Assembly: GCA_016193365.1 (NCBI GenBank)
Contig: JACPSI010000042.1
Location: 25,126 to 89,125 of the forward strand
From: Ignavibacteriales bacterium
GTDB lineage: Bacteria > Bacteroidota > Ignavibacteria > UBA10030
Reading direction: 5' to 3'
Length of the DNA stretch: 64,000 nt
Within the stretch, counting starts at the first letter, position 1. The number at the start of each line of letters is the position of its first letter. Below, piece after piece: positions 3,440-50,623 of the stretch. Both the position numbers and the translations under genes were made by a program. Under the pieces are notes generated by a model. That model had not been told where the DNA came from, ran no database searches, and saw nothing but the letters and a program-made list of their open reading frames with translations.

Positions 3440-3495
3440 GGTATGAAAATAAGGTAGAGAGAGAAGGGAAGAAAAGCAATCTCGTCGCAGCAGAC

Positions 3496-3610
3496 CTTCC
3501 GAAGGAATTCAGGTGAATTCGTGTCCTTCGGAAGGTTAACATTGCCAAAACTTCGAGTTGACGAGAGAACCTTCCGAGGGTCCTCTCATGGCGTTGAAAC
3601 CTTCGGAAGG
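3496..3610. repeat. Array of four 11-bp near-palindromes CCTTCSGAAGG between dnaG and the ferredoxin gene
   Basis: ccttccgaagg 3496-3506, ccttcggaagg 3525-3535, ccttccgaggg 3570-3580, ccttcggaagg 3600-3610. Orientation alternates, and the last unit abuts the dnaG stop codon. Confidence 0.5.
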
Positions 3611-3613
3611 TCT

Positions 3614-46929: not shown

Positions 46930-47634
46930 TCATTTACTTGACATCCACTGGTGTGTCATTCGAGCTAGATCACTCAGGACATCCCCATCCGTTTTTCCCG
47001 AGCTTTTCAGCACATGAAACGAATGGTCCGCGCCGTCGATAACATGTAGCGTTGCGAATTTTCCCAGTTTGTCCACTACAGGCTTCAACAGCGACATCTC
47101 CGCAAAATCGTCTCTCGTGCCCTGCAGAAACAACATCGGCACCGTAACTCTTGAGAGATGTTCTGCCCGCTCAATCGAAGGCTTGCCAGGCGGGTGCAGA
47201 GGGAATCCGAGGAAAACGATTCCACGCACATGAGGCAGCGGCTCCTCAGCTGCGGCGCTTGAGGTCATCCTTCCGCCAAAAGATTTCCCTCCTGCAAACA
47301 ACGGAAGTCCCGGTGCCAGCTTTGCCGCTGTTTCAACAGCTGAGCGAACTGTCGCATAAATAACCGGTTTTGGATCGGGACGTTTGCCTCCCTGCTCCAT
47401 GTAAGGAAACTGGTAACGGAATGTGCCGATTCCATGTTCTGCCAGTTTATGTGATATGGCCTCGAGGAATTTCTGCCGCATACCGGCTCCCGCGCCGTGC
47501 GCGAGGACGAGAAGGGCCTTGGCGTTGTCGGGGAGCATGAGGATTGCGCTGACGGTGCCAACAGATTTGGAGGCAATAAAAGACGTGTTGGTGATTTCAG
47601 TTGAAAGCATGTCGGAAAGTAAGAAGAAATCCAA
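46930..47634 (-). CDS. Alpha/beta-hydrolase-fold protein (COG3571/KANL3-like predicted hydrolase)
   Basis: 234 aa. LLVLAHGAGAGM, nucleophile-elbow-like GGKSFGG, and a C-terminal DH motif. Confidence 0.72.
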   Translation of the reverse strand: MDFFLLSDMLSTEITNTSFIASKSVGTVSAILMLPDNAKALLVLAHGAGAGMRQKFLEAISHKLAEHGIGTFRYQFPYMEQGGKRPDPKPVIYATVRSAVETAAKLAPGLPLFAGGKSFGGRMTSSAAAEEPLPHVRGIVFLGFPLHPPGKPSIERAEHLSRVTVPMLFLQGTRDDFAEMSLLKPVVDKLGKFATLHVIDGADHSFHVLKSSGKTDGDVLSDLARMTHQWMSSK

Positions 47635-47669
47635 CGAAGTCGAAGATGAGTAATTGACACACCCCTACA

Positions 47670-47779
47670 CCCCTCTCTCAACGCTCATTCCCACACACGA
47701 GAGGGGACTTTTTAGAGCTAAGGAAAAACGAGCGTAGGAATTCCCCTCTGTGTGATGGAATGTGTACAGGAGAGAGGGG
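47670..47779. repeat. Pair of ~37-bp hairpin-forming units in mutually inverted orientation
   Basis: cccctctctcaacgctcattcccacacacgagagggg (47670-47706) and cccctctgtgtgatggaatgtgtacaggagagagggg (47743-47779). The reverse complement of the second aligns with the first. Each has 7-8 bp terminal stems, cccctctc/gagagggg. Confidence 0.45.
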
Positions 47780-47831
47780 ATAAAGGGGTGTGTGCTTTGT
47801 CTTCACCCCGAAATCTCGGTGCAACTAGATT

Positions 47832-47928
47832 GTCATTCTGAGAGAAGCCCCGAAGGGGCGGAGCGAAGAATCTGATTCCAGGTATTAATCAGATTCTTCG
47901 TCTCGCATAAGCGCTCGACTCAGAATGA
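47832..47928. repeat. Copy B: ~97-nt element with 11-bp terminal inverted repeats enclosing two internal hairpins (candidate MITE/REP-like element or structured RNA)
   Basis: gtcattctgag ... ctcagaatgac terminal inverted repeats. Internal hairpins are gccccgaaggggc and cgaagaatctgatt-N-aatcagattcttcg. It is homologous to 44846-44912. Confidence 0.5.
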
Positions 47929-48017
47929 CATACTATTTGTGCACCTCGATTAAAGTCCCGCGGAATATGCTCCACGCACAAACCCGTCGATTTCGACCCC
48001 GCCCCACATCCGCGATC

Positions 48018-48212
48018 TTACTTGCCTTTGCTCAACCAAAGCGAAAGAAAAAGACGATTCATCCCGAGCGGAGACGAGGGATGGTTTTCGTTAAACTCGT
48101 TTAGCCGCATCAGCATTGCGCTGACGTTTCCGGAGGATTTGGAGGCGAGGAAGGTCGTGTTTGTTATTTTGGGTGATGACATGGTTGTTCTCTGTCCGTA
48201 GGGACACGGCAT
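48018..48212 (-). pseudogene. Decayed N-terminal fragment of an alpha/beta-hydrolase paralog
   Basis: The 64-aa ORF MPCPYGQRTTMSSPKITNTTFLASKSSGNVSAMLMRLNEFNENHPSSPLGMNRLFL aligns with the N-terminus of the 46930-47634 hydrolase (MLSTEITNTSFIASKSVGTVSAILMLPDNAKALLVLAHGAGAGMRQKFL), then stops. Confidence 0.5.
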
Positions 48213-48225
48213 GCCGTGTCCCTAC
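48198..48225. promoter_or_regulatory. 28-bp perfect palindrome upstream of ligD (candidate operator)
   Basis: gtagggacacggcatgccgtgtccctac is a perfect two-fold symmetric site 74 nt upstream of the chosen ligD start. No U-tract follows on either strand. Confidence 0.45.
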
Positions 48226-48298
48226 AAAGCGTAACCCCACAATAACAAACAATTCCAACAAAGCAAATCGGCGCCATTCTCATTATATTTGCAATCCA

Positions 48299-50623
48299 AT
48301 GGCGCGCACATCCCAATACGTCAAGGTTGGCAAACGAACTGTCGAACTCTCGAATCTCAAAAAAATCCTCTTTGCGGATGACGAGATCCTGAAGGCTGAG
48401 TTAATCCAGTTTTACCTCAAACTGGCTCCTACCATCCTCGCACATATCAAAGGCCGTCCCCTTTCCGTAGTCCGCTATCCGGATGGTGTCGGCGGGGATT
48501 CGTTTTTCCAAAAAAACCGTCCCGACTGGGCTCCTGCCTGGATGGACCATGCCGAGTTGGGCGACAAGGAAAAAGGCAAAACCATCGACTACATGATTGC
48601 CACCGAGGAGGCCTCGCTAGTCTTTCTGGCAAACCTTGCATGCATTGAACTGCACCAGATGCATTCGCGATCGCCGAATTTCGACAAGCCGGATTATTTT
48701 GTTGTCGATCTCGACCCGCCGGAGAGTTTTCCGTTTTCCAAAATCGTCGGCATCGCGTTCGAATTCAAGGAACACCTCGAATCGTTCGGCTATCATCCAT
48801 TTGTGAAAACGACGGGTAAGAAGGGGCTGCATATCGTCTCGCCGCTCGAACCTAAGTGGAGTTTCGACGAGGTCTTTGAAGCAGCAAAAGCCATCGCCCA
48901 GCCGTTCGTCGACAGCCACAAATCGACAACGACGCTGCACATCAAAAAAGAGTACCGCAAGGACAAGATGCTGATCGACATCTACCGCAACCGCACGTTT
49001 CAAACAATCATTTCTCCGTATAGTGTACGCGGAAGCAGAGGAGCTCCGGTTTCGACTCCATTGAATTGGGAAGAACTCGAACATTTGAAATCGCCAGCCG
49101 AGTTGAATCTGGAAACCGTTCCCGAACGAGTCATTGCAAATGGGGACCCGTGGGAAGCTATCGGCGCTTATGCAACCAGTTTGCACACCGACCGCAAATC
49201 CAAACGGCCAAAACCTCTTGAAAAAGAGAAAGCTGTCGAGTCTCTCAAAACATATGACAAGAAAAGGAGCTTTAACAAGACGCCCGAACCCGGCCCAAAA
49301 GTTCCCGCGGGAAAGGGCAACTCTTTTGTTGTGCATCGTCACCACGCATCGCGACTTCATTACGATTTGCGGCTGGAAAAAGGAGGCACACTGAAATCGT
49401 GGGCTGTCCCCAAAGGACTCCCGCCGCGTCCGGGCATTAAACGGCTTGCCGTCAACGTGGAAGACCATCCTATGGATTATCTCACCTTCGAAGGAAAGAT
49501 TCCGAAAGGCGAATACGGCGGAGGTGACGTGTGGGTGTTTGCGCTGGGCAAATATGTCATTACAAAAGAAAAGAAAGACGGATTCTATTTTCGACTTCAG
49601 AGCAAAGAGATCAACGCGGAGTATCGCACATTCCCGACGGACGGCAAGAACTGGCTGCTGGAACGACTCGACAACCCGCAAATCGATTTTCTGAGAGACA
49701 ATGTTGAGTATATGCTTTCAGAAAGCCGCGAAAAGGTGCCTACTTCAGGCGATTATCTTTATGAAGTGAAGTGGGACGGAATTCGCGCAATGATCTCGCT
49801 GGATGAAGGAGTCGTGAAAATCCGCAGCCGCAATAACAAAGACATCACCAAGAGTTTTCCCGAATTGCTCATCCCCGACAAAGCATTCCGTGCGACCAAT
49901 GCGCTTATCGATTGCGAAATAGTTTGCCTGGATAAGTCGGGAAAACCCGTGTTTAAAGATGTCATCAACCGCATGCACCAAACGACTGAAGGAGCGATTG
50001 CCCGCGCGAGAGCAAAATTCCCCGCAGTCTGTTATGTTTTCGACTGCCTCTATCTCGACGGCCGCGCTATTGTGAACGAACCGCTCACACGGCGGCGTGT
50101 CTGGCTTAAGGATGTCGTTCGCCCGGATACGCCGTATCGAGTCAGCGAGGTCGTTGAAGAAGGCGAGGATCTTTTTGAGGCTGCAAAGCAAATGGGGCTT
50201 GAAGGGATCATGGCAAAAGAGAGGAACAGTCAGTACGTCGTCGGCAAGCGCAGCTCTTACTGGCTGAAAGTCAAAACCAGGCAAACGGCGGATTGCGTGA
50301 TCATCGGCTACACGAAAGGGAAAGGAAGCCGCGACTCTGCTTTTGGTGCGCTCCACCTTGCTCAGAAGAAGGACGGCGACCTTGTGTACGTCGGCAAGGT
50401 CGGTACCGGCTTCGATGACCGGATGTTGAAATCGATTTACCTGGAGCTCAAAAAGTTTCGGAAAATCAAAAAACCCATCAAGCAAAAAACCCTCGACGAT
50501 GTTGCGACCATCTGGATCGAACCAAAGCTGTTTTGTGAAGTCCAATACGCCTCCCTGACCAAAGACAAGATGCTTCGCGAGCCTGTGTTTTTGAGGTTGC
50601 GGCCGGATTTGTCCAACGAGTGA
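48299..50623 (+). CDS. ligD: ATP-dependent DNA ligase LigD, three-domain (polymerase/primase - phosphoesterase - ligase)
   Basis: Pol domain (FFQKNRPDW, VVDLDPPE, KTTGKKGLHIV), PE domain (FVVHRHHASRLHYDLRLE), and ligase domain (EVKWDGIR KxDG motif, then OB fold). The start was chosen at MARTSQYVKV (ATG 48299). The longest ORF from 48161 uses an alternative start and overlaps the palindrome. Confidence 0.9.
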   Translation: MARTSQYVKVGKRTVELSNLKKILFADDEILKAELIQFYLKLAPTILAHIKGRPLSVVRYPDGVGGDSFFQKNRPDWAPAWMDHAELGDKEKGKTIDYMIATEEASLVFLANLACIELHQMHSRSPNFDKPDYFVVDLDPPESFPFSKIVGIAFEFKEHLESFGYHPFVKTTGKKGLHIVSPLEPKWSFDEVFEAAKAIAQPFVDSHKSTTTLHIKKEYRKDKMLIDIYRNRTFQTIISPYSVRGSRGAPVSTPLNWEELEHLKSPAELNLETVPERVIANGDPWEAIGAYATSLHTDRKSKRPKPLEKEKAVESLKTYDKKRSFNKTPEPGPKVPAGKGNSFVVHRHHASRLHYDLRLEKGGTLKSWAVPKGLPPRPGIKRLAVNVEDHPMDYLTFEGKIPKGEYGGGDVWVFALGKYVITKEKKDGFYFRLQSKEINAEYRTFPTDGKNWLLERLDNPQIDFLRDNVEYMLSESREKVPTSGDYLYEVKWDGIRAMISLDEGVVKIRSRNNKDITKSFPELLIPDKAFRATNALIDCEIVCLDKSGKPVFKDVINRMHQTTEGAIARARAKFPAVCYVFDCLYLDGRAIVNEPLTRRRVWLKDVVRPDTPYRVSEVVEEGEDLFEAAKQMGLEGIMAKERNSQYVVGKRSSYWLKVKTRQTADCVIIGYTKGKGSRDSAFGALHLAQKKDGDLVYVGKVGTGFDDRMLKSIYLELKKFRKIKKPIKQKTLDDVATIWIEPKLFCEVQYASLTKDKMLREPVFLRLRPDLSNE

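Follow-up and report, generated by a model that had tools for sequence, protein, structure and literature searches.

Genes and hairpins at the ligD locus

A hairpin-dense stretch (47655-47940) lies in the intergenic region of about 690 bp between two divergent genes, one coding for a hydrolase and the other being ligD, in a 64-kb piece of DNA from an Ignavibacteriales bacterium (hereafter the window, i.e. all 64,000 nucleotides analysed). The stretch, which is held entirely within this region, resolves into two large units, elements A and B, and is probably composed of two unrelated gene-less palindromic DNA repeats, namely empty nuclease cassettes of the Ssn type (B) and the DUF559 type (A) in an expanded intergenic region, rather than of an RNA gene. 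Three Logan metagenome contigs contain the same region at 99.6-100% identity, and the hydrolase of the window is 100% identical to a protein annotated in an Ignavibacteriales metagenome-assembled genome. The divergent setting had been recognised in an earlier sequence-only reading of the window, which also placed the stretch at the point where gene orientation flips for the whole window; the flip does take place at the divergent pair, but it does not extend to the whole window, as the block of plus-strand genes ends at about 55.9 kb and minus-strand genes resume. A replication origin or terminus at the flip was considered and rejected, the plus block being 8 kb only, the GC skew showing no V shape and the DnaA boxes occurring at chance level.

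The features of the stretch and the two flanking genes are listed below, the L-numbers (L022, L124 etc.) used here and further on being labels of retrieved comparison loci.

ATG 47610, stop 46930, minus strand: hydrolase gene of the Abhydrolase_11/dienelactone-hydrolase type
Probable ATG 48300, plus strand: ligD, with Prim-Pol, phosphoesterase and ligase domains
47657-47793, cassette orientation minus: element A, an imperfect hairpin of 137 nt, recognised by its fold, by its relatives L131-L135 and by the arms bracketing DUF559 genes in L133/L138, L160 and L161
47742-47793, minus strand: left cassette arm of A, reading ACACACCCCT-TTAT-CCCCTCTCTC...CATTCC..CACACAGAGGGGA
47657-47708, minus strand: right cassette arm of A, reading GT-CCCCTCTCGTGTGTGGGAATG-AGCGTT-GAGAGAGGGG-TGT-AGGGGTGTGT, with its end 46 nt upstream of the hydrolase ATG
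47783-47832, no strand: spacer with the GGGGTG..CACCCC and AATCT..AGATT hairpins, at chance level
47831-47930 including the flanking T/A, no strand: element B, a gene-less inverted doublet of candidate Ssn-type hairpin motifs with the termini TGTCATTCTGAG / CTCAGAATGACA
47832-47872, plus strand: left arm of B, GTC-ATTCT-[GAG AGAA GCCCC-GAA-GGGGC GGAG CGA]-AGAAT-C
47892-47929, minus strand: right arm of B, GTC-ATTCT-[GAG TCGAGCGCTTATGCGAGA CGA]-AGAAT-C

The fold of 47655-47940 has a predicted free energy of -138.9 kcal/mol, with z-scores against shuffled sequence of -12.5 (plus strand) and -9.1 (minus strand), so the main hairpins of the stretch are real and far above chance. Element A alone folds with -79 kcal/mol and a z-score of about -9.5 on either strand, and equally good folds were found in none of 200 shuffles. 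The two 37-nt stem-loops at 47670-47706 and 47743-47779, described in the sequence-only reading as reverse-complement copies of each other, turned out to be the two arms of the long hairpin of element A, each of which also folds alone via CCCCTCTC...GAGAGGGG; they are present and inverted, but not exact reverse complements, as 21 of the 37 positions are identical in the ungapped comparison. Both arms of A stand in cassette order on the minus strand and are separated by 33 nt at the place which the gene occupies in cassettes.

Element B comprises 98 nt (47832-47929) rather than the 97 nt counted before, whereas the other parts of that description, i.e. 11-bp terminal inverted repeats and two internal hairpins, were confirmed. 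The terminal repeats GTCATTCTGAG/CTCAGAATGAC are exact over 11 bp, or 12 bp counting the flanking T/A, and the inner hairpins are GCCCC-GAA-GGGGC and a perfect 14-bp CGAAGAATCTGATT/AATCAGATTCTTCG hairpin (z -8.0 for the element on the plus strand and -7.3 on the minus strand). The three-way-junction-like fold ascribed to B is an appearance arising because the two arms carry different tip hairpins. The smaller GGGGTG...CACCCC and AATCT...AGATT hairpins between A and B, counted earlier as members of the cluster, are not above chance (free energy -13.6, z -1.5, 15 of 200 shuffles equally good), and the former borrows the 3' end of element A. Neither BLAST nor a covariance model detected further copies of A or B within the window.

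The element B family

One genome per species was scanned with the pattern GTCATTCTGAG-N60-90-CTCAGAATGAC, in which the inner stem was not specified, and the family was found to include at least 120 loci, with Acidobacteriota, Chloroflexota, Bacteroidota, Verrucomicrobiota, Firmicutes, Proteobacteria, Planctomycetes, the candidate phyla radiation (CPR) and others among the matches listed (all family counts from collection scans are lower bounds). The 126 extracted copies have one architecture consisting of an outer stem, a part that is short and variable (junction or side hairpin), an inner stem and a variable self-complementary apex, and the inner stem CGAAGAATC/GATTCTTCG is found in nearly all of them. 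The junction base N of GAGCGNAGCG is paired between the arms in 28 of 32 canonical copies, with all four Watson-Crick pairs represented. Of 125 copies, 111 are preceded by T, nine by C, five by A and none by G, and 114 are followed by A, which gives ends of the TG...CA type if these flanking bases T and A are included. Over all retrieved loci, arms follow the rule GTC-X5...rc(X5)-C, where rc denotes the reverse complement, in 261/297 cases for X5 = ATTCT, 11/13 for ATGCT, 10/12 for ATTGC, 8/9 for ACCCT, 3/5 for ATCCT and 3/4 for ATTCC, with controls giving at most 3; the five variants other than ATTCT represent compensatory changes within the arm.

Copies of B occur in tandem, divergent and convergent intergenic contexts, and no recurrent neighbour gene was revealed among 985 open reading frames (ORFs) of 120 loci. 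No target-site duplication exceeding the permuted control was detected at the B copies for lengths 2-9 and three boundary offsets. The covariance model R1, built from 30 canonical copies, finds the window copy with 24.8 bits (E ~9e-4) as its sole significant match in 64 kb. The suggestion that B is generally nested in larger palindromes was dropped, the complementarity of the flanks beyond T/A being only slightly above control. A DNA-level search of a plasmid collection for A and B returned no match.

Element B and the Ssn nucleases

In the literature, the terminal 11-mers of B matched primers only, and the related string GTCATTCCCGCG led to the NTS repeats of Neisseria. NTS (CGTCATTCCCGCGMAVGCGGGAATCYRG) is bound and cut, solely as single-stranded DNA (ssDNA), by SsnA, a single-domain GIY-YIG nuclease of 94 amino acids (aa) (Chenal et al. 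2025, PMC11893778). As reported in the same work, cleavage is governed by the GTC located upstream of the palindrome, the C that immediately follows the palindrome is the most important for binding, and ssn genes typically have their motif on both sides (PMC11893778). Others have established that cutting near NTS lowers the integration of transforming DNA in Neisseria.

Element B resembles this NTS/SRM and SsnA system, which includes the Neisseria dRS3 repeats (PMC11893778), in several respects. The motif consists of GTC, a hairpin of about 9 bp starting with ATTC and ending with GAAT, and then C; the base before GTC is never G; genes of the Ssn family lie between the arms, as in the layout NTS-ssnA-NTS; and the family is intergenic and multi-copy in many genomes. 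Both B arms in the window read T-GTC-ATTCT..., with a non-G base before GTC which matches the H of the published HGTC motif, and both read AGAAT-C, so that the C directly follows the palindrome as in NTS/SRM. The differences concern the stem, which is ATTCT-GA-GC/GC-GA-AGAAT with a GNA loop in B and G+C-rich in NTS, the arrangement of B mostly as tight inverted doublets with a self-complementary spacer, and the occurrence of B, found here in phyla such as Acidobacteriota, Chloroflexota and CPR.

The gene between B arms encodes a GIY-YIG protein of about 94 aa. In the L022 cassette, a left B arm is followed by a GIY-YIG ORF (PF01541, E 5e-15) and by a right B arm overlapping the stop codon. Arms or full doublets also flank GIY-YIG homologs in L140-149, L150/151, L152 (Anabaena), L153-155, L157 (a Planktothrix plasmid) and L158 (a Spirosoma plasmid, with the variant ATCCC/GGGAT), all of these being single-domain GIY-YIG genes assigned to the Ssn family (cd10448) by homology to SsnA. 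The tail ..DSSLRSE, which is the translated right arm of B, is present in 16 of the best 120 homologs; the GIY-YIG family itself is very large, with E values of at most 1e-10 for 7,983 of the 8,000 candidates scored. A homolog from N. gonorrhoeae shares 49% identity with the protein of L022 (E 3e-18), with Y17 and E64 at the same positions; it can be equated with the SsnA of the paper because of its length of 94 aa, its residues Y6, Y17 and E64 and its setting among at least nine NTS copies. The record in question, L156 (NZ_CP119142.1), is filed in PLSDB as a plasmid of 2.17 Mb, is evidently a chromosome and has its ssnA region unannotated in the table. No structure of SsnA was found in PDB, the nearest entry being the UPF0213 protein 1ZG2 (E 3e-4).

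Since the two arms of its full-length relatives bracket an Ssn-family gene of about 94 aa, element B appears to be the ends-only version of such a cassette, and on sequence grounds the best description for it is that of an inverted doublet without a gene, built from a variant Ssn-related motif. By likeness to NTS, the B family might serve as a nuclease target.

Some of the cassettes deserve a separate remark. In many metagenomic lineages, namely in L022 (2983-3373), L140-149 and L153-155, the Ssn-type gene with its B arms is located between bioA (Aminotran_3) and bioD (AAA_26/CbiA); the insertion site there could be conserved or have been used repeatedly. In L150/L151 the GIY-YIG gene is flanked by tandem GTAGCGAAGCATCTGCG-like units together with ATGCT/AGCAT arms, i.e. 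by a local amplification of arm fragments. Weak tblastn matches near 60.6 kb of the window, considered as a GIY-YIG remnant, fall in an unrelated ORF of 125 aa.

Element A and DUF559 genes

Metagenomes were scanned for relatives of element A with the pattern CCCCTCTCTC-N4-10-CATTCC-N5-12-AGAGGGG, which gave ten stretches, including five true relatives (L131-L135, with L138 being the same locus as L133). On the strand of the hydrolase direction they share the unit GT-CCCCTCTCGTGCGNNGGAATG-N6-GAGAGAGGGG-N3-5-AGGGGTGTGTG, with conservation reaching well beyond the bases of the pattern. Singletons and inverted doublets of the unit occur, and it is also found directly 3' of DUF559 genes. A riboswitch-like association of A with particular genes was rejected, as the downstream genes, coding for a DinB-like protein, a major facilitator superfamily transporter, an M24 peptidase and a hydrolase, are unrelated.

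In L133/L138, inverted A arms bracket a DUF559 gene (PF04480, E 2e-27), and the same is true of L160, from another Ignavibacteriales metagenome-assembled genome, and of L161. The arms are about 52 nt long and are built as CACACACCCCT..CCCCTCTC-loop-GAGAGGGG; upstream of the DUF559 genes of L160 and L161 the layout is CACACACCCCT-N5-CCCCTCTC..AGAGGGGA, and the left arm of A in the window matches it. The pair of arms proposed as the signature of a DUF559 cassette, CACACACCCCT-N4-5-CCCCTCTC..AGAGGGGA and an inverted GT-CCCCTCTCGTG..GAGAGGGG-N3-5-AGRGGTGTGTG, is found in element A of the window. The C-terminal tails ..SPLV, ..SPLS.. and ..ERGEQRGVCF, representing the translated right arm of A, are carried by six of 120 DUF559 homologs.

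Two DUF559 genes of cyanobacterial plasmids, 36-38% identical to those of Ignavibacteria, are bracketed by inverted hairpin arms of their own, which are of the C5/G5 type:

L165, Picosynechococcus PCC 7002 pAQ6, 452-468/851-867: DUF559 hairpin arms
L166, Pseudanabaena plasmid, 298-337/884-923 (40 nt, 100% complementary) and 352-386/833-867: DUF559 hairpin arms

These distant cases suggest that the link between DUF559 genes and hairpin arms is general. The proteins are related to the DUF559/Vsr-like PD-(D/E)XK endonucleases (PF04480; Steczkiewicz et al. 2012, PMC3424549), and the gene between A arms is a typical single-domain one of 113-135 aa. A tie of DUF559 to flanking hairpin repeats or to gene-less derivatives was not found described in the open-access papers searched that mention DUF559. 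Vsr is a T/G mismatch nicking enzyme which is not known to have a repeat partner. A-type repeats and DUF559 may perhaps constitute an undescribed third partnership of a nuclease with a hairpin repeat, beside RAYT-REP (REP, repetitive extragenic palindrome; RAYT, REP-associated tyrosine transposase) and Ssn-NTS, with gene-less doublets and single arms scattered in the same lineages.

Rebuilt intergenic region

The relatives with a hydrolase 74-79% identical to the one in the window keep the divergent arrangement of ligD and the hydrolase gene, with intergenic lengths of 75 bp in L124-126, 164 bp in L127/128 and about 530 bp in L129, as compared to about 690 bp here. Elements A and B are absent from the orthologous intergenic region of L124-L129. 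Between element B and ligD, outside the stretch to which the sequence-only reading drew attention, the following features were identified.

48245-48299, plus strand: core of about 55 nt shared by all of the relatives L124-L129, with almost the same sequence in L124, L127 and L129, of the ancestral promoter region between the divergent ligD and hydrolase genes
48198-48225, no strand: element C, a perfect 28-nt palindrome GTAGGGACACGGCATGCCGTGTCCCTAC, a GTAG-type REP-like hairpin (free energy -23.8, z -5.0)
48107-48182, minus strand: relic of the ancestral hydrolase gene, consisting of 76 nt of its 5' end, MSSPKITNTTFLASKSSGNVSAMLMR..., broken off at about 48107

The core adjoins the ligD start, contains TATATTTG 8 nt before the ligD ATG and is taken to be a promoter on inference. 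The relic, 73% identical to the 5' end of the live gene at 47535-47611, occupies the place where the relatives have their hydrolase start, beside the conserved promoter core, and about 495 bp of unrelated sequence, including B and A, lie between it and the live hydrolase ATG. Because of this position of the relic start next to the core and of the sequence with A and B preceding the live ATG, the intergenic region can be considered rebuilt and the hairpins additions to it. The relic looks like a scar of gene replacement or rearrangement, and the location of A and B beside it fits a recombination-prone site, short of proving one. The spacers 47936-48110 and 47600-47660 have no relatives among the retrieved loci.

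Element C is situated between the promoter core and the start codon of the relic. In L127 the equivalent place is taken by GTAAGGGCGTTCAATTGAACGCCCTTAC, which has the same format and a different stem sequence. The class of GTAG-tagged REPs to which C would correspond is described in PMC3733652. An inverted repeat of 16 nt, 94% complementary, encloses element C (48158-48173 TGTTTGTTATTTTGGG / 48236-48251 CCCACAATAACAAACA) and links the promoter core to the coding start of the relic; it may be due to chance. L129 has, at another position of the region, a different B-type variant GTCATTGCGAG...CGAAGCAATC...GATTGCTTCG...CTCGCAATGAC of the type ending in GCAATC. The same locus contains, at 2500-2620, the small hairpins CTCCCCT-AAG-AGGGGAG and CCCTCTCC-TTTTA-GGAGAGGG, whose stems resemble those of the A arms.

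Relation to known repeat families

Similarly to the REPs and REPINs (inverted doublets of REPs) with their RAYT (Bertels & Rainey 2011, PMC3116915; PMC3337134; Di Nocera et al. 2013, PMC3733652), elements A and B form inverted hairpin doublets able to fold into one long hairpin, occur as singletons and dimers, are intergenic and lack a target-site duplication, and a single-copy gene of the nuclease type is flanked by the repeats. They differ from REPs in having no unpaired GTAG or CGTC tag, as A arms start with ACACACCCC or GTCCCC and B arms with TGTC; a GTAG start was found only in element C. The flanked gene also differs, being a GIY-YIG or DUF559 nuclease and not an HUH tyrosine transposase.

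[quoted passage not shown] A and B share with MITEs the size of about 100-150 bp, the terminal inverted repeats, the lack of genes and the insertion polymorphism between related genomes. They differ in having neither a target-site duplication nor a transposase parent, the elements with the same ends encoding GIY-YIG or DUF559 nucleases and not transposases, and in being self-complementary over nearly the whole element. B is tied to the same protein family and has the same logic as NTS/SRM outside the published motif, and A follows the logic of REPIN-RAYT and NTS-Ssn with a different family of nucleases.

Nature of the stretch

The sequence-only reading had left a choice between a cluster of REP/MITE-like elements and a structured non-coding RNA. 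The first of these is borne out insofar as A and B belong to dispersed families whose members stand beside unrelated genes in other genomes and are absent from the orthologous site of relatives. The second, which could be either a small RNA or a long and structured leader at the 5' end of the hydrolase mRNA with control over its expression, draws on the very stable predicted folds (z -12.5 for the whole stretch) and on the position of the stretch upstream of the hydrolase ATG; the stretch may well be transcribed, since no clear promoter of the sigma-70 type was found between it and the hydrolase gene. Despite that, a covariance search found no Rfam family at gathering thresholds in the whole window, with generic hairpin (miRNA-like) noise being all that 47500-48300 yielded at E up to 10, and none in 17 loci with canonical copies of A, B or NTS. 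A weak match to Acido-Lenti-1 RNA was discarded, as it covers the GCCCC/GGGGC hairpin only. Moreover, folding is equally good on both strands, the stretch is absent from syntenic relatives which keep both genes, members of the families lie beside unrelated genes in every orientation class, and the sequence of the stems is conserved from phylum to phylum, although a constraint on RNA structure alone would allow it to drift. A functional RNA is therefore the most improbable of the explanations considered.

If A and B are mobile repeats of a classical kind, either MITEs dependent on a DDE transposase or REPINs mobilised by a tyrosine transposase of the RAYT/IS200 type, the nuclease genes would be mere cargo. 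This would suit their small size, intergenic location and terminal inverted repeats, the TG...CA ends of B with its flanking T and A, and the inverted doublet, which is the REPIN layout (PMC3116915, PMC3337134); Acidobacteria encode tyrosine transposases associated with terminal inverted repeats (PMC3733652). The lack of a target-site duplication cuts both ways, being compatible with single-strand transposition by HUH enzymes and speaking against a DDE transposase. On the other hand, no transposase or RAYT was present among the 985 ORFs neighbouring B copies at 120 loci, the unpaired GTAG tag seen in REPs of the RAYT type is missing from A and B, the genes located precisely between the arms are repeatedly GIY-YIG and DUF559 nucleases only, and the B sequence is common to several phyla, whereas REPIN-RAYT systems are lineage-specific, all of which makes this explanation unlikely. 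It is quite improbable, too, that the hairpins serve the host as a bidirectional terminator or insulator, as sites for nucleoid proteins or as operators of the downstream PadR regulator. Their location between divergent genes and the fourfold occurrence of the CCCCTCTC/GAGAGGGG motif in alternating orientation are in favour of such a role, and REP elements are known to have been co-opted in this way (PMC3733652). Nevertheless, the stems are not followed by T-runs, the conserved promoter core of ligD is intact and outside the stretch, PadR has an upstream region of its own, relatives function without A and B, and the same repeats occur by unrelated genes.

The reading of A and B as empty nuclease cassettes has to face several points which weigh against it. 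The published SRM expression HGTCWYN(0-2)YYVSBRHN(0-5)WNVSBRGN(0-2)RNCYNB matches the NTS control and neither the window copy nor the canonical B arms (within the window it fits a single place, 60751, which falls in an ORF and seems fortuitous), which is the reason for filing B as a variant of SRM and not as a member. The independent contexts of B cassettes number about five, because many of the close homologs examined share one orthologous bioA-bioD locus, and a GIY-YIG gene adjoins one of 120 randomly sampled B loci. The window itself contains one copy each of A and B and no GIY-YIG (Ssn) or DUF559 gene. The link between A and DUF559 comes from three DNA loci and six protein tails, and even for the Neisseria NTS the mechanism of mobility is hypothetical.

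As regards the mechanism, A and B would act, if at all, as ssDNA hairpins recognised by a cognate nuclease made elsewhere in the genome, and could be cut when single-stranded provided that such nucleases are encoded there. Events linked to the nuclease or to recombination, and not DDE transposition, may have led to their spread or loss. In the present intergenic region A and B are most likely passive and stand there as empty copies, which would at most add secondary structure upstream of the hydrolase gene, with a side effect on expression via a long leader being possible.

Implications for annotation and for nuclease families

The locus itself is ordinary, and it is the links at the family level that are moderately interesting. 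For annotation, the stretch is to be treated as repeat debris, so that neither an RNA gene nor its short spurious ORFs should be annotated. Environmental genomes commonly contain the GTCATTCTGAG...CGAAGAATC hairpin, whose translation often gives rise to spurious peptides, e.g. ..DSSLRSE, and it may now be readable as a recognition-type motif of the large clade of Ssn ssDNA nucleases. Counts of Ssn-related motifs in genomes are probably underestimates, because the B hairpin is outside the published motif definition. The variant motif of B offers new specificities for ssDNA tools.

DUF559 is a widespread domain of unknown function, and its repeated bracketing by hairpin arms provides a testable hypothesis on the substrate. 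If the partnership of A with DUF559 is true, it would be suggested that DUF559 proteins are sequence- or structure-specific nucleases recognising the flanking hairpins, and the three classes of repeats together with the gene-replacement scar by ligD would mark a recombination-prone site shaped by such nucleases.

In another intergenic region of the window there are two hairpins (3491-3537 and 3568-3613) with 13-14-bp stems ACCTTCCGAAGG(A)/(T)CCTTCGGAAGGT, which represent a different type of palindromic repeat.

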